A DNA stretch of 64,000 nt from Candidatus Bathyarchaeota archaeon (GTDB taxonomy: Archaea; Thermoproteota; Bathyarchaeia; 40CM-2-53-6; RBG-13-38-9), in contig CAWECG010000003.1 in the NCBI GenBank assembly GCA_963807605.1, positions 1,093,265-1,157,264 on the forward strand, written 5' to 3'. The position numbers were made by a program, and so were the translations under genes. How positions within the stretch are numbered: position 1 is the stretch's first letter; every line of letters starts with the position of its first letter. The notes beneath the pieces were generated by a model, which was given only the letters and a program-made list of their open reading frames with translations, was not told the origin of the DNA and did no database searches. Below, piece after piece: positions 50,188 through 64,000 of the stretch.

Positions 50188-51217
50188 ATGGATGATAATG
50201 CACCAATCTGGGAAGCGAAGAGGCAACTGAAGATCCTCGCCAATGCAGAGACGGATCCGCAATACGGAAGGAGACCTGCCGAGAGATCGATTGAGGAATA
50301 TCTCCGGCTTGGAGCAGTAAACCTAGACAAACCGCCAAACCCGTCAAGTAGTGAGGTCGTAGCTTGGGTCAAGCGAATCCTTGGAGTCTCGCACGCCGGC
50401 CATGGTGGAACCCTAGAGGCTGAGAAGCCGGGGAGACCCGATGGTTACGGGCGTACTCCCCATCACGCTTGAGGATGCAACAAAGGCCATACAAGTATTC
50501 CTCCTCTCAGGAAAAGAGTACGTCTGCCTAATGCAGGTCCACAGCGATAAGCCTGAAGAGACGATCCAGTCTATACTCAATGAGTTCACGGGTGAGATCT
50601 ACCAGAAGCCACCTCTGAGAGCCTCGGTGAAGAGAGAGACCAGAAGGAGGACAATATACAAGATAGACCTCCTCGAGATCGACGGCAGAAGGGTTCTCTT
50701 CAGAGTTGCCTGCCAAGCTGGAACATACATCAGGAAGCTATGCTCAGATATAGGAGAGGCCCTGGGCTGTGGAGCCCATATGAACGAGCTGAGAAGGACA
50801 AGAGCAGGCCCATTCAACGAGGACGAGAATAGCTATACTCTCCACGAGCTTCAAGAGGCCAAGAGAATCTACGATGAGGAAGGCCGCGAAGAACAGTTAA
50901 GGCTGGTAGTCCAGCCGGTTGAAGGAGCCTTCAAGTACCTCTCGAAGATCTATATTCGAGACTCTGCAGTCGACGCCATCTGTCATGGCGCAGAACTTGC
51001 CATCCCTGGAATAGTCAAGTTAGAGACAGGAATCAAATCAAAGAGTCTAGTAGGCATATTCACGCTTAAAGACGAGGTTGTAGCCCTCGCAGAAGCTCAG
51101 CAGTCCACAGAGAATATTCTGGCTGCTGAGAAAGGCATCGCAGCGAAAACCAAGAGAGTCATAATGAGAACTGGAACATATTCTAGAGAATGGAGAAGCA
51201 GACAGAAACCTGACTAA
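50188..51217 (+). CDS. cbf5: H/ACA pseudouridine synthase Cbf5; exons 50188-50416 and 50436-51217, 19-nt intron
   Basis: LDKP, HGGTL[intron][27 protein letters not shown] domain; spliced CDS = 336 aa. Confidence 0.93.
50417..50435 (+). other. BHB-type mRNA intron in cbf5
   Basis: CCCT-AG|A-GGCT GAGA AGCC-GGGG-AG|A; removal restores the frame and Asp codon G|AC. Confidence 0.9.
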
Positions 51218-52048: not shown

Positions 52049-52166
52049 GCCGGGATTCCCGAGCCTGGTACGGGGCAGTTTCGATTAGAAGCCCATGCCT
52101 GGAAACAGACTTGAAAGCCTGTGGTCCTCACGGGCCTCGTGGGTTCAAATCCCACTCCCGGCGCCA
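52049..52166 (+). tRNA. tRNA-Ser(GGA) with two introns (29/30 and 37/38)
   Basis: Removing 52079-52096 and 52105-52115 gives an 89-nt cloverleaf with loop CT GGA AA, long variable arm, G73, CCA; TTTAAA box at ~52017. Confidence 0.9.
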
Positions 52167-52260
52167 AGATGTAATTCAGCAACCGGAAGATTTGCAGAAT
52201 CCCTGATGATCGATGGTTTGAATAATATCCGTGGAAGCCTCTCCCTCGCAGATGTTGTAG

Positions 52261-53157
52261 TGGGTGACTAAGATCATCTGTGATAGTTGCCTAGAAGCCT
52301 TGAGATCCTATTTGAGCCTTAGAGGGCCAGGTGAACTTACCCACCCCTAAAGGGTGTGGGATTTCCCGCTCACCTTTTTTAAAGAGGGAGAATTAATCTG
52401 GCAACATTTAGGATCTATTGTTGGAATGCAAAAGATGATGCTTAGACTAGGCCAACGAATCAACGTTGTCCACAGAGTCAATAATAGTGATTCTGGCACA
52501 AGATACGGCTTTAATTTACACGAGATGCGGGATATCGCTCGGAGCTTATGGCATGAGAACGGATCCGATTTGAGTGTCGCAGAATTCACTCTTAGGCATT
52601 CAATCGATAAAAATGGGTATGACAGAATAATGACCTTGTCGCCGGATTATGCAATTAAAGAGTTCAAAAAGGCTGAACCCTACCTGAACTTGATGAGCGA
52701 AACGACGAGCTCGGAAACTCAGAGCGAGGTTTCGGCTCTAAAAATCCAAATCGCCTTACTGAATCTCAAAATGGAGGAGACAGTATTCTTTAGGAATCTA
52801 GAAAATTATCTAGAGGACCCTGAAGGTCTAATGATCCCCGCCGAGATCTCGTCGTTTGAGGCATGGACTAGCCAGAATTTGAACTACAAGTTTTTGCTAG
52901 AGAAGGATGCGGAGATCGCTAAAAAATATTACTCGGAGTCTGAAGTCAGACAGCATCTAGAATATCCACGGATCAATAGGAAGGTTTTGAATGCCTACTA
53001 CAAAGTGCTTTCCAAGAGACCTGAGCAGGAGATCTCCAAGCTGAAGGCTAAACAATTCAAGCAGCGGTATGGTTTTGCACCTAAAATGTTCTTCGAAACC
53101 CTGACGGTTGAGGAGAAAGATCAAATTCGCCGATTCAGTAGACCTCAACGAGGATGA
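52261..53157 (+). pseudogene. Tyrosine recombinase/integrase C-terminal remnant interrupted by mini-IS
   Basis: LEALRSYLSLRGP|VKEGELIW once 52331-52378 is removed; HEMRD (HxxR) and EFTLRHSIDKNGY (H...Y); N-terminus absent. Confidence 0.72.
52331..52378 (-). mobile_element. 48-bp solo-hairpin IS200/IS605 derivative (PATE-like)
   Basis: Minus strand TTAA|AAAAGGTGAGCGGGAAATCCCACACCCTTTAGGGGTGGGTAAGTTCAC = left end of the tnpB element fused to its right end. Confidence 0.88.
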
Positions 53158-53505
53158 CAATAAGATATTCCAAAGACTAGTTAGAGAGCACTAACGCACA
53201 GCGAGGTAAGGATCCACTTACAGAGCACGCGTGAATAGTACAAGCCTAGTATAAGACAAGTGCTGCTTTACCAAAGTACCGAGTTCAATACTTACTCTAC
53301 AAGTATAATAGTAGTTTGTACAATACAGTACTGCCCAGTCCATACATGGTTCTGGCTAACTACAAAAGTAGTAGTTGTTAGTGCGTTATTACTACTACTA
53401 GTTACTTGTTTAGCTAACAAAGTACTTCTTCTTAAGAACGTTAAATATGGTATACAATGTTATACGTGACTCTGCAAACTCCGTGGATATTTAACATCAT
53501 ATACC

Positions 53506-53646
53506 GACAAGAACTATACACTCGCCCAGTACAGGATAGCTGAGAAGTATCTTAACATAATCTCAGGATCAGCTGAGGTCTCCCAGCTCCAGGAAGAAAT
53601 GCAGAAACGCGACGAGGCTGTAAAGAAGCTCACAGCGCGCGCGTAA
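53506..53646 (+). pseudogene. Second integrase C-terminal tail fragment
   Basis: DKNYTLAQYRIAEKYLNIIS aligns with SPDYAIKEFKKAEPYLNLMS of the upstream remnant. Confidence 0.55.
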
Positions 53647-54243: not shown

Positions 54244-55589
54244 AAAAGGTGAGCGGGAAATCCCACACCCTTTAGGGGTGGGATGAAAACGAACTGGTAT
54301 CAGCATTATAAGCGGAGTTTACAAAAAATGTAGTGAGTACAATGCAGTCTTCAGTGCGCTATAGGCTTTACCCAACAAGGGAACAAGAGGAGGAGATATC
54401 TGCATACCTTGAGCTTTGCCGGTGGCTCTACAACTACTTCTTGGGAATAGTTAGGTGCAGTGTAAAGGCGCCAAAAAGGAAACTTCTACAAGAGATGATC
54501 CCTGCCCTATGCAGATACAAGCCTGAGCTTGAGAAGCTACACTCAAAGACACGGCAATACGTCCTCTACCAACTGTACTCCAATCTCAGGGCACTCTCTG
54601 AGATGAAGAAGAGAGGCAGGAAGGTTGGGAGGCTAAGATTCAAGGGACGTGGATGGTTCAAGGCCTTCATCTACAACCAATCTGGATTCTTAATCAAGCA
54701 TGGTGCAAAGCAGATACGACAGATGGGATTGCTCCACCTCAGCAAGATAGGAGACATCCCAATACGGCTGCATAGGAAGGTTGAGGGCGAAGTCAAACAG
54801 ATCATTATCAAGCGGTCTGCGAACGGCAAGTGGTATGCAATAACCTCCATCGAATATGACCATCCGATAAATACTAAGCCAGTGGACAGAAGCAAAATTG
54901 TTGGGGTAGATGTTGGCATAGTAAACTATGCCTACGATTCTAATGGAAGAGTGACCCCTCATCCGCATAACATCGACAAAAAACTGAAAAGACTCCAAAG
55001 AGAGCAGAGACGGCTATCAAGAAAGAAGAAGGAATCAAGAAACAGGATGAAACAGAAGGTCAAGGTCGCATCAATCCATGAGGAGATAACAAACTGCAGG
55101 AATGACTTCTTGCACAAACTCTCAAGATACTACGTTGACAAACACGATGTAATCTGCATGGAAGATCTGAATATTCAGGATTTGATGCAGGGGATCCGTA
55201 ATGCCAAGAATATGGCTGATGCTTCATGGGGAAGATTTGGAATGATGGTAGGGTACAAGGCTGAAACTGCCTGTAAACTACGAATCCAAGTACCGCCCCA
55301 GAACACCAGCCAGGATTGCAGTGGATGTGGCGCTAAAGTTCCTAAAACTCTTGCAGTGAGGATACACAAGTGTCCCCATTGTAGGCTAAAGATTGATAGG
55401 GACTTCAATGCATCACTCAATATAAGACGTTTAGGACTGGAAAGAATAGGGTGGGAACCATCCGAATACACGCCTGTGGAGATGAAGCCGCTACCCACCA
55501 TTATTGGTGGGCATGTTTCGTCGCTGAAGCAGGAACTTCTCTATCCGCAAGGGGAGAAGCCCACACCCTTTAGGGGTGGGTAAGTTCAC
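54244..55589 (+). mobile_element. Non-autonomous IS200/IS605 (IS1341-like) element carrying tnpB
   Basis: Identical hairpin CCCACACCCTTTAGGGGTGGG at both ends; TTAA 5' of left end; right end stops at TCAC; no tnpA. Confidence 0.88.
54333..55583 (+). CDS. tnpB: RNA-guided endonuclease TnpB
   Basis: YRLYPT, RuvC-I GVDVG, RuvC-II MEDL, Zn ribbon CSGC..CPHC, RuvC-III DRDFNAS. Confidence 0.95.
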   Translation: MSTMQSSVRYRLYPTREQEEEISAYLELCRWLYNYFLGIVRCSVKAPKRKLLQEMIPALCRYKPELEKLHSKTRQYVLYQLYSNLRALSEMKKRGRKVGRLRFKGRGWFKAFIYNQSGFLIKHGAKQIRQMGLLHLSKIGDIPIRLHRKVEGEVKQIIIKRSANGKWYAITSIEYDHPINTKPVDRSKIVGVDVGIVNYAYDSNGRVTPHPHNIDKKLKRLQREQRRLSRKKKESRNRMKQKVKVASIHEEITNCRNDFLHKLSRYYVDKHDVICMEDLNIQDLMQGIRNAKNMADASWGRFGMMVGYKAETACKLRIQVPPQNTSQDCSGCGAKVPKTLAVRIHKCPHCRLKIDRDFNASLNIRRLGLERIGWEPSEYTPVEMKPLPTIIGGHVSSLKQELLYPQGEKPTPFRGG

Positions 55590-56254: not shown

Positions 56255-56505
56255 AGGGATCTGCAGGCTGAGTCGTCAGAGACCCACGGTTAAAACCGTG
56301 GGCTTGAAATGGTGGTATTGATGCAAACTTTGACTAGACGGCTCGGCTCGCAGAGTCGGGTTAGCGGCGTGGAAGGCTACAAGCACGGCAAGTTACGAGA
56401 CCTAGACTTGCCCTCTGCGTCAGAACCACTAAATGGCACGGCTGTCAAACGTGATAGTCTAAGCCTTTCATGCAGCGTCGAAGGTCACAAAACTCCGAAA
56501 GGAGG
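56255..56505 (+). ncRNA. IsrB omegaRNA (HEARO-like): guide ~56255-56274, scaffold from 56275
   Basis: GTCA...TTGACTAG closing stem, GGAAGGCT/AGCCTTTC stem, GGCAAGT/ACTTGCC stem, terminal CTCCGAAAGGAG hairpin. Confidence 0.75.
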
Positions 56506-57576
56506 GCGAATATCGCCAACCCTCAAGGTTCCAGTTGTTGGCATTGATGGGAAACCATTGATGCCTACGACTCCCCAGAGGGCAAGAAAGCTGTTGAAGG
56601 ATGGAGTAGCGGAGAAACAGTGGAACAAGCTTGGGCAATTCTACATACAGATGCTAAGGCAGGTCGGCATTGGGAAGCAACTAGTATGTCTTGCAGAGGA
56701 TCCCGGAAGCAAGTGGGATGGAGTAGCTGTAGTTTCCAAGGAGTTGGTTTTGACATGTGGAATGCTTGTGCTTCCCTCAAAGGTGGCTGAGAAGGTTACC
56801 CAACGCAGAGAGATGCGTAGAGCTAGGCGATTCAGGAATACGCCGAGAAGAGCCAAACGGTTCGATAACAGACGTAGGCCAGATGGATGGATTACTCCAA
56901 GCCAGAAGGCAAAGGTAGACTTCCGAATTGAAATCGTAGACGAGCTATGCAAAATCTATCCCATCAATCAATTTGCTGCTGAGGATGTGCGATTCAACCA
57001 CTACAAGAAACGTTGGGGAAAACACTTCAGTACTGTTGAGATCGGTAAGGCAAAATTCTACAGTCATTTGAGAGGGCTTGGACAGTTGACTCTCTATAGG
57101 GGTGTAGATACTGTTGAGTGGCGTGATAAACTTGGTTTGTCAAAGAATAGTCGAAAGAACAGTTTAACTTGGGACTCTCATGCTGTAGATGCCATCGCCA
57201 TTGGATGTGCAGAGTTAGGCTGTGAGAATCCTTATCCGCCTGAATTCTGGGTTTGGAAACGCTTCGAGTACGCTAGGCGTCAGCTCCACAGACTTGAACC
57301 AGATAAGGGTGGTATCCGTAGAAGGTACGGTGGCTCATGGAGTATTTCACCATTTAGGAAAGGTGACGTGGTACAATACCCGAATGGAATTGCTAGAGTT
57401 GGAGGCTTCATGGACGATTTATCACTGCATAGATTTAGTCTGGCAAACAAACGTTTCACACAGACTGCGAAACTAGAAGAGTGTAAACGACTTTTCAATC
57501 AACAAATATTCAGCAGGTATGAGGTCCCCCAATTCATCCCACCCATGAATAGTGTGGGTTTCCTTGGGGGATTTTG
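56275..57576 (+). mobile_element. IS200/IS605-type element carrying isrB
   Basis: Ends GTCAGAGACCCACGGTTAAAACCGTGGGCTTG and CCCACCCATGAATAGTGTGGGTTTCCTTGGGGGATTTTG|ATGA. Confidence 0.82.
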
Positions 57577-57577
57577 A
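56309..57577 (+). CDS. isrB: IsrB (HNH-less IscB homolog, RRXRR family) RNA-guided nickase; true start uncertain
   Basis: PLMP motif, RuvC-I EDPGSK, Arg-rich bridge helix RREMRRARR, RuvC-II EDV, RuvC-III SHAVDA; no HNH or CxxC between RuvC-II and III. Confidence 0.85.
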   Translation: MVVLMQTLTRRLGSQSRVSGVEGYKHGKLRDLDLPSASEPLNGTAVKRDSLSLSCSVEGHKTPKGGRISPTLKVPVVGIDGKPLMPTTPQRARKLLKDGVAEKQWNKLGQFYIQMLRQVGIGKQLVCLAEDPGSKWDGVAVVSKELVLTCGMLVLPSKVAEKVTQRREMRRARRFRNTPRRAKRFDNRRRPDGWITPSQKAKVDFRIEIVDELCKIYPINQFAAEDVRFNHYKKRWGKHFSTVEIGKAKFYSHLRGLGQLTLYRGVDTVEWRDKLGLSKNSRKNSLTWDSHAVDAIAIGCAELGCENPYPPEFWVWKRFEYARRQLHRLEPDKGGIRRRYGGSWSISPFRKGDVVQYPNGIARVGGFMDDLSLHRFSLANKRFTQTAKLEECKRLFNQQIFSRYEVPQFIPPMNSVGFLGGF

Positions 57578-59203: not shown

Positions 59204-60676
59204 TGAAGCTGATCGTCGGCGTGGAGGAGGTGCTCATCGCCTCGTCATACGTCACCGTGACGGTGAAATTCCCGTTGCCGATGTCGTCCTGAGTGACCGT
59301 CGGCACGTTGGTCGTCACGCTGCTGACGGTCGGCACAGCGGGCGTAACCGTGACTTGCGCGGAGGACGGGGTATTGAGGCTGGGAACGTCGGCCGTCTGG
59401 TTCTCGGCGTCGTGCCGCCGCTGCGTTGCTCTCGGTGACGCTCACCGTCTGGCCTTTGGCGACCTGGATGGCGGTGAACGTGTGCGCCGTCGATCAGCGT
59501 CGCTGGTGCCGTCGGTCGTGACCGGTGACGCTCGTCGCCGCTGGGCAGTGCACTCTTGGCCGATGGGGTTGCCGTCGGCGAGCACTCCACCGTCGCCGCT
59601 GGTGACGCCGGTAACGTTGAAAGTGGAGGGCCTGGCGCTGCTGCGAGTTGTTCAAGTTGGTGGTCTGGCTGCTGCCGCCGCTGGGCGGCACGAAGGCCAC
59701 GCTGCTCGGCGCCGCCGGCGTGACCGTGGCGCAAGGGTTGGCCGGCGTTCGACGACGAATCGGCCGCGATCGTGACGGTGAAGGCTGCGGCGTCGGCGTG
59801 TCCGTGCCGTCGTTGGCGGTCACCGTGACCGTGACCGTGCCGGTGGCCCCCGCCGGCGGCCGCAACTCCAGCACGCCGTTCTGCGTGTCCGTGAAGATCG
59901 AGGTCGACTTGATCGTCACCGGAGTCACAAGTATACAATGCCGTTGGGTCCTGGGTGGAGCTTTCGTCCGCCATCGCCGCGATGGCCTGGTTCGACGGCT
60001 CGCCCGCCGTCTGAAAACCGAAGATCGTGTAGTTGAAGTCGAGGCCCCGGGTAGCCTCCTCCGTGACAAAGAACTCCTCGAGTTGGTGCTCGGGGTCGTT
60101 ACCCCGCCATGGCCAGAAGGCCGGCCGAGGTGAATTGGAGGTCGGGATTGAACTCCTCGGCCATCGCCGGCTGGTCGGGCTTGATGGCGCCGGTGGGCGG
60201 GTCATTGCCGCCTTGGATCACGAAGCGGGTTGCCGCTGGCGTCCATTGCCGTTGCGGTAAATCTGCGCCCGTTGTAGAACCCGCAATTGACCAGACTCTC
60301 GATCGCCGCGGTAGTGTTCGGCGCGAGATTGTCGAACAACTGGAAGTCCATCGTCTCGGTCGATGCCGTTGATGTCGACGTTCCAGTTGCAGGCTCTTGT
60401 TGGTCTGCGGCATGATCACCGGCGTGAGCTTCGAGTAGTCGGAAGCCGTCACCGCGAAGTTCAGCGTCGGCCCGGACTCGCTGCCGGCCAGGGGAATGAA
60501 AATCGTGGTTCCCGCCGGCATGCGTCACGTTGGCGATCGACCCCAGGCCGACCGGCTGAGCAGGCAGCGGCTCTCGAGCTGGTCGAACCTGGCCTGCCGG
60601 CGTATCCAAAGCGCCGGCAAGAACCATGGATGCGCGAGAGCGATCGCTTCGTATGAATCGAATGAGACTTCTTCAC
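59204..60676 (-). CDS. Secreted cyclophilin-type PPIase with Planctomycete extracellular signal (frameshifted, 3'-truncated)
   Basis: ARFDQLESRCLLS, FQLFDNLAPNT, FVIQGG, EEFNPDLQFTSAGLLAMA, LDFNYTIFG across frames. Confidence 0.72.
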
Positions 60677-61102
60677 GGTTGACTCCGCCAAAAAAGGGAC
60701 AATAGGGACTTCTCTCGGAAGAGAGCAAAGCCGCCTACCCAAGCCGGGGAGTCTTATAGCCTTCGCGGGTCGAAATCGCCGTTTCGCCTCGGGAAACGTG
60801 TCATTACGTGCCGCGCACGGTATAGGATGCCCTCCCGCCGCGCCGCCGGCCGTCCGGATCGGCTCACGCCTTATCAGAAAAATCCGTGAAAACGGTCGGC
60901 CCCTGGAAGCCCAGCCGGAATTGCAGACCCTCTTTCTCACCCGGCCTTGCGTTGTTCCGATTCACCCATTCTAACCTATGAGTCGGAAAGCCACAAAGAA
61001 AAAATGAGGGGCCGGCGTCGGCTTTGCCGGAGAGTCTGCCGCGCCGGGGCGTAAGGGGGGGGCCGCCTTTGCCGATCCTGTTGATGCGAGGAAATTTAGC
61101 GA

Positions 61103-62378
61103 TTATTCCTCGCAGCACGGCCCAGGCGGTCTCGATGTGCCCAAGGGGGCGCTGACTTGAATGCCGGCCACCCGCCGGCGGACCCGGGCGACCGACTCCC
61201 GCGCCACGGCCACGCCCACGGCCAACTGCTCCTCGCGGCCGGCCGCCGCGGCCATCCGCTCCAGCACCGCGTCGGGCACGACCACCCCCGGCACCTCGTT
61301 CCGCATGAACAGGGCGTTGCGGTAGCTCACCAGCGGCCAGACGCCGGCGAGGATCGGGATGCCCAGCGGCTGAGACTCGTCGAGCATCCCCAGCAGGGCG
61401 TCGGGGTGAACACCGGGTGGGTGATGGCGAATTCCTCCCTCCTGCACTTTCCGGCGGAAGCGCTGGACTTCGCGGCGGCGGTCCAGGTCCGTAGGGTCCA
61501 GGCCGACGCCGATCACCGCCATCGTCTGCGGGTCGATGGCCTGGCCGCCCAAGTCGATGCCGGCGTTCAGCGGCGCTGCACGGCGACCATGCCGATCGAG
61601 TCGGCGTCGAACACGCCGGTGGCGTGCGGATAGTCGCCCAGCTTGGGCGGATCGCCGGTCACGAACAGCAGGTTGCGGATGCCGCAGGCGGCGCAGGCCA
61701 ACAGGTCGGCCTGCATGCCGATCAGGTTGCGGTCGCGGCAGCAGAAGTGCAGCACGGCCTCGATGCCCGCCTCCCGCTGGATGCGGTCGGCGGTAACCAG
61801 CGGCGAAATGCGAGCTGGCCCGCGGACCGTCGGGGATATTGATCGCCGAGACGCCGCGCTCGCCGAGCGTGCGGCTTTTCGCCACGGTGCTGCTCAGGTC
61901 GTAGCCGCGGGGCGGCACGATCTCGCGTCTCGAAGATGATGAAATCGGCCCCTCCCTCCCGCAGGGCGCCGGCCTGCTCGGCAATCATCTCCTCGACCAG
62001 CCCCGTAGGGCGGGCGGCGAGGGGAGCGGCCCGATCGAGCCGGCCACGAGAACTCGCGGCCGGAAGCGGCGTCTGCCACCCGCCGGGCCGAGACCGCCCC
62101 GGCGCGGTTGATGCCCGCACCTTGTCTCCCAGGCCGAACTTGGCCAGCCCCACGGGTTCGCCCCGAAGGTGTTGGTGGTCAGCACGTCGGCCCCGGCCTC
62201 GCAGTATTCGCGGTGGATGGCCTCGATCAGTTTGGGTCGGCGAGGACGACTGGTCGAACGAGCGGTTGGTGAAACGTGGTGCCGGTAGATCTCCGTGCCC
62301 ATCGCGCCGTCGAAGACGAGCACGCCGCGCGCGGAGGGCGTCGGAGAAGATCGGCGGCTCGGCACGGGCGGCGGTCAT
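61103..62378 (-). CDS. Bifunctional homocysteine S-methyltransferase/MTHFR (YitJ-like), frameshifted
   Basis: VFDGAMGTE, GADVLTTNTFGAN, NIPDGPRAS, HFCCRDRNLIGMQ, TGDPPKLGDYP, NEVPGV across frames. Confidence 0.8.
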
Positions 62379-62415
62379 GATAAGCCGTTTAGCGGGCGGG
62401 CTTGCCCGCCGGTTA

Positions 62416-62528
62416 CTCCGTTCCCACGGTCCTCCGTGGGAACGCCGCGAGTGGCCGCTCGGCGGCCCTTCCCGACTCGGGGACGCAGAGCCCACTCAGT
62501 GCGTTCCCACGCGGAGCATGGGAACGAG
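62416..62528. repeat. REP-like palindrome doublet
   Basis: CGTTCCCACGG-TCCT-CCGTGGGAACG (62419-62444) and CGTTCCCACGC-GGA-GCATGGGAACG (62502-62526). Confidence 0.7.
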
Positions 62529-62539
62529 AAAATAGTACG

Positions 62540-62934
62540 CGTGCCAGAAGTCGCCACCACCGCCGCCGCCGAAATCACCGCCGCCGCCGCCGAAGTCACC
62601 ACCACCACCACCACCGAAATTACCACCGCCGCCGGCATCGCCGCCAAAATCACCGCCGCCGCCGGGGTCGCCGCTGAAATCGCCGGCGCCGGAATTCCCG
62701 GCGACGAGCCCGAGTCGCCGGACATGATCCCGCCGCCCCCCTAACGACCCCCGGCCGCCGCGAAAGGAGTCATAGAGCCAACTGCCCGCGGCCGCGCCGA
62801 ACATCCCGCCCGAGCATCGACTGGAAGAAGCCGCCGCCCCCGCCGGAAAGGCCAGGCGAAGCGGCGCCCTCAAGTGCCACCGAGCCCAACAGCGAAAGCA
62901 AGCGGGACATGGGAAATCTCCGGGAATAAGGCAT
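62540..62934 (-). CDS. Gly-rich protein or fragment with GGDFGGG repeats (frameshifted; boundaries approximate)
   Basis: GGGGFFQSMLG, GMFGAAAGSWLYDSF, (GGDFGGGG)n. Confidence 0.5.
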
Positions 62935-63087
62935 TTGATCTGCCATCGTCCGCACCTCTATGAGTGTGCGGTTTCACCCATCGCTGAGAATTCTAGCAAA
63001 CCCAGGCAGATTGACAACGCCCCGGCCGGCAACGACAATACGGCCAGCCTTCGTTTTTTGCCTCTTTCCGATCGAAAGGGTTTTGGC

Positions 63088-64000
63088 GATGATGCTCAGA
63101 GTCCAGATGGCGGCAGGCAGTCTTCGCGTCGGGAGTTTCTTCAGCGGTCGGGCAGTGCGGGTGGCGGCCGCGGCCCGGCGGGCCATTGACGGCCCGCGGC
63201 TACGCCGGCGAAGAGAACACGATCAAGATCGCCCTGGTGGGCTGCGGCGGGCGGGGCACGGGGCGGCCGCCCAGGCCCTGAGCAACCGAGGGCCCCACCA
63301 AGCTCGTGGCCATGGCCGATTTTTTCCCGCAAAGATGCCGGGCAGCATCCGCCAGCCGCGCCAGCATTCCCCAAGCAGATCGACTCCCGCCGGAGCGGCA
63401 GTTCACCGGGCTGGACGGCTACCGCAAGGCCATCGATGCGCTCCCCCGGCGACGTGGTGCTGCTGGCCACGCCGCCGGGTTCCGGCCGCTCCACCTGGAA
63501 TATGCGGTCCAGAAAGTCGTGCAACGTGTTCATGGAAAAGTCGTTCGCCGTGGATGCCCCCGGCATACGCCGCGTCCTCAGGGCGGGCAGGAAGCCGGCC
63601 AAGAAGAACCTCAAGATCGCCTGCGGCCTGATGACCCGCCATTACCGCCCGCTGGAAGAGGCCTCGGGCAAATCCACAAGGGCCTCATCGGCGACTCATC
63701 ACCTGCTGGGCTTACCGCGAGCACGCCGGTGGGGCTTCCCGCCCCGGCCGCCGGGCGCGAGCGAAATGGCCCAGCAGATCCGCAACTACTACTGCTTTAC
63801 CTGGCTCAACGGCAGTTTCATCCTGGACTGGCTGATCCACAATCTCGACGTGTGCTGCTGGGGCAAGGAGGCCTGGCCGGTCTCGGCCCAGGGGCAAGGC
63901 GGGCGCCAGGCCCGCACCGAGCCCGATCCGCTGTTCGACCACTACGCGATCGAATACTGTTCGCCGACGGCACGCGGCTGTTCGCCCAGGGCCGGCACAT
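63088..64000 (+). CDS. Tat-exported Gfo/Idh/MocA oxidoreductase (frameshifted, runs off window)
   Basis: SSRREFLQ twin-arginine motif, TIKIALVGCGGRGTGAA, ATPPG, VFMEK, IHNLDV across frames. Confidence 0.78.

Follow-up and report, generated by a model that had tools for sequence, protein, structure and literature searches.

Within the window, by which we mean the whole stretch of 64,000 nt analysed here, a truncated integrase gene carries a 48-bp insert that matches both ends of a neighbouring tnpB element (Table 1). The region is bounded on its left by a probable tRNA gene for which neither ARAGORN nor Rfam made a direct call; ARAGORN reports a tRNA starting at 52049 only once a segment of ~30 nt is removed. 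It is followed by the remnant of a rad50/SbcC-like gene, which shares 79–81% DNA identity with the end of the intact gene in four relatives up to a sharp stop at 52300. In these relatives the gene is intact and lies at the corresponding position, following the same cbf5 and methyltransferase genes; the present assembly yielded no close full-length copy. In the window the cbf5/truB gene (50188–51217) appears split into two frames near 50440–50470, perhaps by a sequencing frameshift. Because the rad50-like similarity ends at GAAGCCT, a motif that doubles as E-A-L in the integrase frame, a deletion has fused a broken rad50-like gene to a broken integrase, 30 bp from the insert.

Table 1. Features of the integrase locus and of the neighbouring tnpB element (window coordinates).
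Position	Strand	Feature	Basis or remark
52049..52166	+	Probable tRNA-Ser(UGA) with non-canonical intron	Read by eye; not firmly typed
about 52200..52300	-	3′ remnant of rad50/SbcC-like gene	Joins integrase piece at GAAGCCT (52294-52300)
52294..53157	+	3′ half of tyrosine-recombinase (integrase-family) gene	5′-truncated, interrupted by the 48-bp scar
52331..52378	-	Terminal-only (single-hairpin) remnant of family-A tnpB element, 48 bp (scar)	Sequence match
52331..52339	-	Outer right end of scar, 9 nt; last 4 nt = right cleavage site TCAC	Identical to 55581-55589
52340..52360	-	Sole 21-nt subterminal hairpin of scar	Identical to both hairpins of neighbouring full copy
52361..52378	-	Outer left end of scar, 18 nt; last 4 nt = guide AAAT (52364-52361)	Identical to 54244-54261
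52379..52382	-	Target tetranucleotide TTAA, host sequence, unduplicated	Family-A copies, element in genome G008, integrase homologues
54244..55589	+	Full-length tnpB-only IS200/IS605 (IS1341-type) element, family A, 1346 bp	One of 9 full copies
54262-54282	+	Left hairpin of full element, guide AAAT	
54333..55583	+	tnpB ORF, 416 aa; RuvC D-E-D motifs visible	Extends through right hairpin
55560-55580	+	Right hairpin of full element, guide GAAG	

The interrupted gene had been taken for an integrase, and this identification held. Of 30 homologues, 15 match the Pfam profile PF00589, with an E-value of 2e-8 at best, and the structure modelled for the full-length homologue P0003 resembles those of XerA and Cre (E 4e-5, probability 1.0), so that sequence and predicted fold both mark the host gene as a tyrosine recombinase; Pfam, NCBIfam and PDB sequence searches gave no name for single proteins of the family. 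The first-pass annotation had further proposed that the insert knocks the integrase out, a claim that we do not uphold. The piece in the window covers only positions 201–366 of the 399-position profile: its first ~200 codons (positions 1–200, the N-terminal binding domain and the first half of the catalytic domain) are absent upstream in all frames, and the gene, fused to the rad50-like remnant, is dead irrespective of the 48-bp insert. The homologue search found no longer homologues of the fragment. A split integrase of the SSV type, whose missing half would be encoded at another site, was considered as well and rejected, because the genome yielded no close match to an N-terminal half; a hit at C1:143 kb is located opposite a different gene and does not represent an integrase ORF. 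A second 3′ scrap of an integrase is present at about 53470–53646, so what follows the tRNA is a decayed integration site. Within this scrap, about 53506–53634 shares 94.6% DNA identity with the end of a paralogue at C3:85893–86021. In the homologue alignment the family consensus reads FQGxxDxE, with D at the usual position of the first catalytic Arg; next to the catalytic Lys stands an invariant Arg (R200-K201 of P0003), and possibly the family has a relocated catalytic Arg.

The neighbouring full-length element has tnpB as its sole gene, subterminal hairpins and a target motif directly 5′ of its left end, as expected for the IS1341 type, and its ORF matches PF01385, PF07282 and PF12323 as well as NCBIfam NF040570 above cut-off. 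Further along the window an RRXRR (IscB/IsrB-type) ORF at 56275–57577 has an end hairpin resembling those of the tnpB families, and a HEARO-like RNA overlaps its 5′ part (E 7e-11, below the gathering score). From 59250 to 64000 the GC content rises from about 46% to 63–70% and the DNA looks bacterial; this is the extreme end of contig C3, the end of contig C4 looks likewise, and the segment is probably chimeric or contaminant assembly sequence.

Read on the minus strand, the scar is identical to the left end of the neighbouring element (54244–54282) over 39/39 nt (blastn E 2e-14) and to its right end (55560–55589) over 30/30 nt, both matches overlapping in the 21-nt hairpin, which bears out the exact end-to-end fusion described before. 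The two hairpins of the full copy are spaced by 1298 bp; removal of the core and one hairpin from the 1346-bp element thus leaves exactly 48 bp. As the first-pass annotation had also noted, the hybrid end combines the guide AAAT with the right-end site TCAC. Since scar and neighbouring element lie in opposite orientation, they form the arms of a 43-bp perfect inverted repeat with 1857 nt between them, in agreement with the ~43-bp repeat around ~1.86 kb that had been predicted. There is no sign of inversion between the arms, the integrase frame being gapless across the scar. The scar consists only of the left terminus, one palindrome and the right terminus of an IS605-type element; the palindromes form a direct repeat in the parent, from which the core and one repeat are deleted; terminal inverted repeats and a target duplication are absent, and a fixed target oligonucleotide precedes the 5′ end. 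It is a terminal-only PATE, a clean new example of an element type described from haloarchaea in 2011 and not a new kind.

The boundaries of the insert were determined by several lines of evidence. The insert contains an in-frame TAA, and deletion of the 48 bp yields ...YLSLRGPVKEGELIW, so that the integrase reading is restored and runs gapless against homologues (RGPVKEGELIW versus RGPIREGELIW), as anticipated. Restoration of the frame had been taken to fix the target as TTAA; this part of the argument fails, as deletions of 45 and 51 bp open the frame equally well. The target itself stands, without duplication, on other grounds. After the 48-bp deletion LSLRGPVKEGELIW aligns to LELRGPIREGELIW of homologue P0005 without a gap, and P0009 is gapless too; on a profile of 124 sequences this deletion scores best (141.6 bits versus 138.9 and 137.4). 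In 9 of the 12 family-A copies the left end is immediately preceded by TTAA, the remaining three varying in an A-run, and a related element in genome G008 opens TTAA-CAGAGGTGAGCGGGAAAT (TTAA-CAGAGG), with the same boundary and no A-run. In G008 a family-A relative (L019:923–2800) has a family-C element nested in its tnpB. At the other end, flanks diverge straight after TCAC in all 12 copies. The homologous integrases, among which a 16-codon segment at this place would have spoken against an insertion, do not contain it. Because the flanks join into one gapless integrase frame, both tips derive from one insertion site. The empty-site sequence has no second occurrence in the genome, and no relative genome carries the integrase site.

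Genome-wide, family A comprises 9 full copies (94–98.5% identical) and 3 scars of 48 bp. The scars, for which a genome-wide search had been suggested as a check, are dispersed, and each follows TTAA. Family B, which has different ends and the target TTAT, is represented by 8 full copies as counted by script, with one more bearing a variant left end; 5 of 13 copies are scars of 48 bp. A sixth, variant family-B scar at C3:10003–10050 (minus strand) has the left arm TTCAT instead of GAAAA; TTCAT is the complement of the 3′ arm of the left end, a signature suggestive of a template-switch correction, which also destroyed the guide. Scars were found neither among the 13 copies of family C nor among the 2 of family D. 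The left and right hairpins match in families A and B and differ in C and D, and the contrast between the scarred matching-hairpin families and the 15 scarless C and D copies gives p=0.016 (Fisher), a value that counts kin copies as independent where effectively two families are compared with two. A perfect end repeat of 20–21 nt is kept in only one surviving full copy each of families A and B; that of family A is the neighbour of the scar at 54244–55589, whose hairpin matches the scar exactly. Outside the genome, a pattern scan of metagenome and genome contigs gave no match, a hairpin-based scan of 42 related metagenome loci detected no scars, and a search allowing 3 mismatches in 400 genomes of the same class likewise returned none, these being fragmented assemblies that drop repeats. 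In one peat contig, matches to the left end and to the right end flank a stretch of unknown sequence, which makes the contig uninformative.

Several arrangements of these elements were recorded alongside. The majority of IS605-type copies, from all four families, are clustered at C4:480000–723000; here two family-B scars are each separated from a family-A right end by no more than about 60 bp. A family-B scar on C3 is followed immediately by a family-C element, and in the C5:72256 region the right end of an IS200 (tnpA-only) copy continues into a family-B outer right end, forming a hybrid end between two families.

The directly observed anatomy, boundaries, copy census, allele pattern and guide–target correlation would be accounted for as follows. 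A complete family-A tnpB element would have entered the integrase gene behind TTAA, inserted by a Y1 transposase (TnpA) supplied in trans. The subterminal hairpins of this element constitute a 21-nt direct repeat, and slippage or recombination between them would delete 1298 bp, comprising the spacer at the left end, tnpB, the guide-RNA scaffold and one of the hairpins, and would leave the left tip, one hairpin and the right tip. The simplest route would be replication slippage or recombination between the 21-nt repeats, which can form hairpins in single-stranded DNA. After such a collapse neither nuclease nor guide RNA would remain, and with target motif and target 48 bp apart the unit should be neither excised nor cut. 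The same collapse would have occurred independently several times in this genome. We consider it highly probable that a family-A element inserted after TTAA and collapsed between its hairpins in place, that this happened independently several times, and that the scar is probably immobile.

The first-pass annotation had left the choice between such a collapse and a minimal PATE moved in trans. In the latter case the 48-mer would have arisen once or a few times as a mobile unit, carried by TnpA to TTAA sites including this one. Three dispersed family-A scars, each placed precisely after TTAA, agree with this, as do the high share of scars (8–9 versus about 18 full copies in A and B) and the identity of three family-B scars with one another; the mobility of such units was also left open by Dyall-Smith et al. 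(PMC3119063). However, the guides speak against it. The left guide–target pairs of the four families are AAAT-TTAA, AAAA-TTAT, AAAG-TTAC and AAAC-TTAG, and the right pairs are GAAG-TCAC and GAAT-TCAA: the base-level pairing rule between guide and cleavage site known from IS608 predicts every target seen. The scar retains only the left guide AAAT, which fits TTAA and mismatches TCAC at 2 of 3 pairing positions, and thus lacks the pair of end hairpins with cognate guides that mobile PATEs carry. In IS608 both ends and their cognate guides are needed for excision (PMC3201880; PMC10055086), and the TnpA dimer has two binding sites (PMC3201880), one of which a single hairpin would leave empty if the present enzyme behaves alike.

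The alleles argue in the same direction. The three family-A scars represent three different hairpin haplotypes, and two of them follow different full-length parents: the C1 scar has the CCCCC allele seen in four full-length left ends, the C4 scar the CCTAC allele of one other full copy's left end, and neither allele occurs at any right end. One mobile ancestor would need two parallel mutations. The chance of two such matches is about 0.004 under uniform mutation, with the caveat that copies could also have exchanged alleles by gene conversion. Many identical dispersed copies had been named beforehand as a sign of mobility; family A has no such series and no near-identical expansion forming its own lineage. 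The three identical family-B scars equal the consensus and are hence uninformative. A consistent pattern of local hops was dismissed, as no scar other than the one in the window agrees with the full copy closest to it. No scar turned up in the search of 400 further genomes of the class, and an intact TnpA was not found in the assembly: all four tnpA copies are damaged, one by a frameshift near the catalytic tyrosine, which may be a sequencing error, one by an altered HUH motif and two by truncation, in an assembly that is 94% complete.

Restriction to matching-hairpin families, different scar alleles, the AAAT/TCAC mismatch and the lack of an intact TnpA together favour repeated in-place collapse. 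Together with the exact fusion and the census this makes collapse the best reading of the two; a mobile minimal PATE we regard as improbable, and the specific version in which TnpA moves the 48-nt single-hairpin unit in trans, using one hairpin for both cuts, as slightly less probable still. If true, the latter would be about the smallest mobile unit of the IS200/IS605 group and would break the rule of two ends with cognate guides. From the sequences we conclude that the scars would be products of separate in-place deletions. With one hairpin instead of two and the guide AAAT unfit for TCAC, the scar is most likely immobile.

The same scar could also result from repair triggered by TnpB instead of spontaneous slippage, a variant that we count within in-place collapse and to which we give a real but clearly minor chance. 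After excision of the element TnpB would cut the empty site, the element would be copied back from the sister chromosome, and the new strands would anneal early at the shared hairpin. The deletion of the 5′ half of the integrase stops 30 bp short of the right end, close to the point at which TnpB is expected to cut, but this distance is a single case. In the variant family-B scar the 5′ arm has been replaced by the complement of the 3′ arm of the left end, a template-switch signature in keeping with such repair. Cutting of donor joints by TnpB followed by repair from the sister has been shown for IS605 elements (PMC10055086), whereas the Haloquadratum PATE HqIRS46 collapses likewise without a tnpB (PMC3119063), and no feature at the present locus separates repair from replication slippage.

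An assembly artefact, or a rearrangement junction between two different elements, is very unlikely. The chimeric-looking contig end with 63–70% GC lies 7 kb away, and two DNA sequencing runs that contain a small share of the genome do not cover the scar, no RNA run being among those listed. However, nine scars of exactly 48 bp are known from the two families; they occupy different sites, and some bear private mutations. The flanks of the window scar form one continuous gene, and two 151-nt pieces in an independent run are identical to the integrase remnant.

The genome thereby offers a natural control for the model of 2011: about a third of the A and B copies are collapsed, those of C and D not at all. 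Scarred families with matching ends beside scarless families with unlike ends point to repeat-mediated deletion as a regular loss route of RNA-guided TnpB elements. The scars also provide defined substrates for a question open since 2011, namely whether terminal-only units move. For annotation it is relevant that 48 bp preserves the frame, so that scars of this kind go unnoticed within ORFs if their stop-free orientation is the one being read.

Finally, we compared the locus with known systems. The integrase fragment keeps the H-x-x-R, H and Y of tyrosine recombinases of the XerA and Cre fold; unlike XerA and Cre, this copy is without the N-terminal ~200 residues, and its family consensus has D for the first catalytic R. 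Family A shares with IS1341-type elements and IS608 the subterminal hairpins, the 4-nt guides that predict cleavage sites, a tnpB with RuvC motifs and insertion 3′ of a fixed tetranucleotide without duplication, whereas the scar differs from them in that it has a single hairpin, lacks both tnpB and the guide-RNA scaffold, and carries a guide suited to the left site only. Solo LTRs arise when a retrotransposon collapses by recombination between the direct repeats at its ends, leaving one repeat. The likeness is one of analogy only, the repeat of the scar being 21 nt long, subterminal and without a promoter, and no target duplication being present. The closest counterparts are the 52-bp terminal-only PATEs of Haloquadratum walsbyi, which arose from ISHwa23, a tnpB-only IS605-type element of 1500 bp, and from HqIRS46 by deletion between end palindromes of 19–22 nt (Dyall-Smith et al. 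2011, PMC3119063); a full-text literature search on terminal-only PATE terms returned no other paper. Like the scar, they consist of left tip, one palindrome and right tip, cause no target duplication and have a right end ...TTCAC; their 52 bp include 4–5 nt of target, as would the 48 bp here plus TTAA. Host lineage (here Bathyarchaeia, with archaeal gene content) and element families are different. In Haloquadratum, comparison of two strains showed the full and the collapsed form at one and the same site. Six strain-specific insertions there were without exception terminal-only, which the authors read as a hint of mobility while leaving the question open (PMC3119063). For the present site the genomes and reads searched yielded no full element, and in-place collapse is what the sequences suggest. 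What the present genome has, unlike Haloquadratum, is a control within one genome, its families with unlike ends being scarless, and alleles that point to separate origins of the scars.
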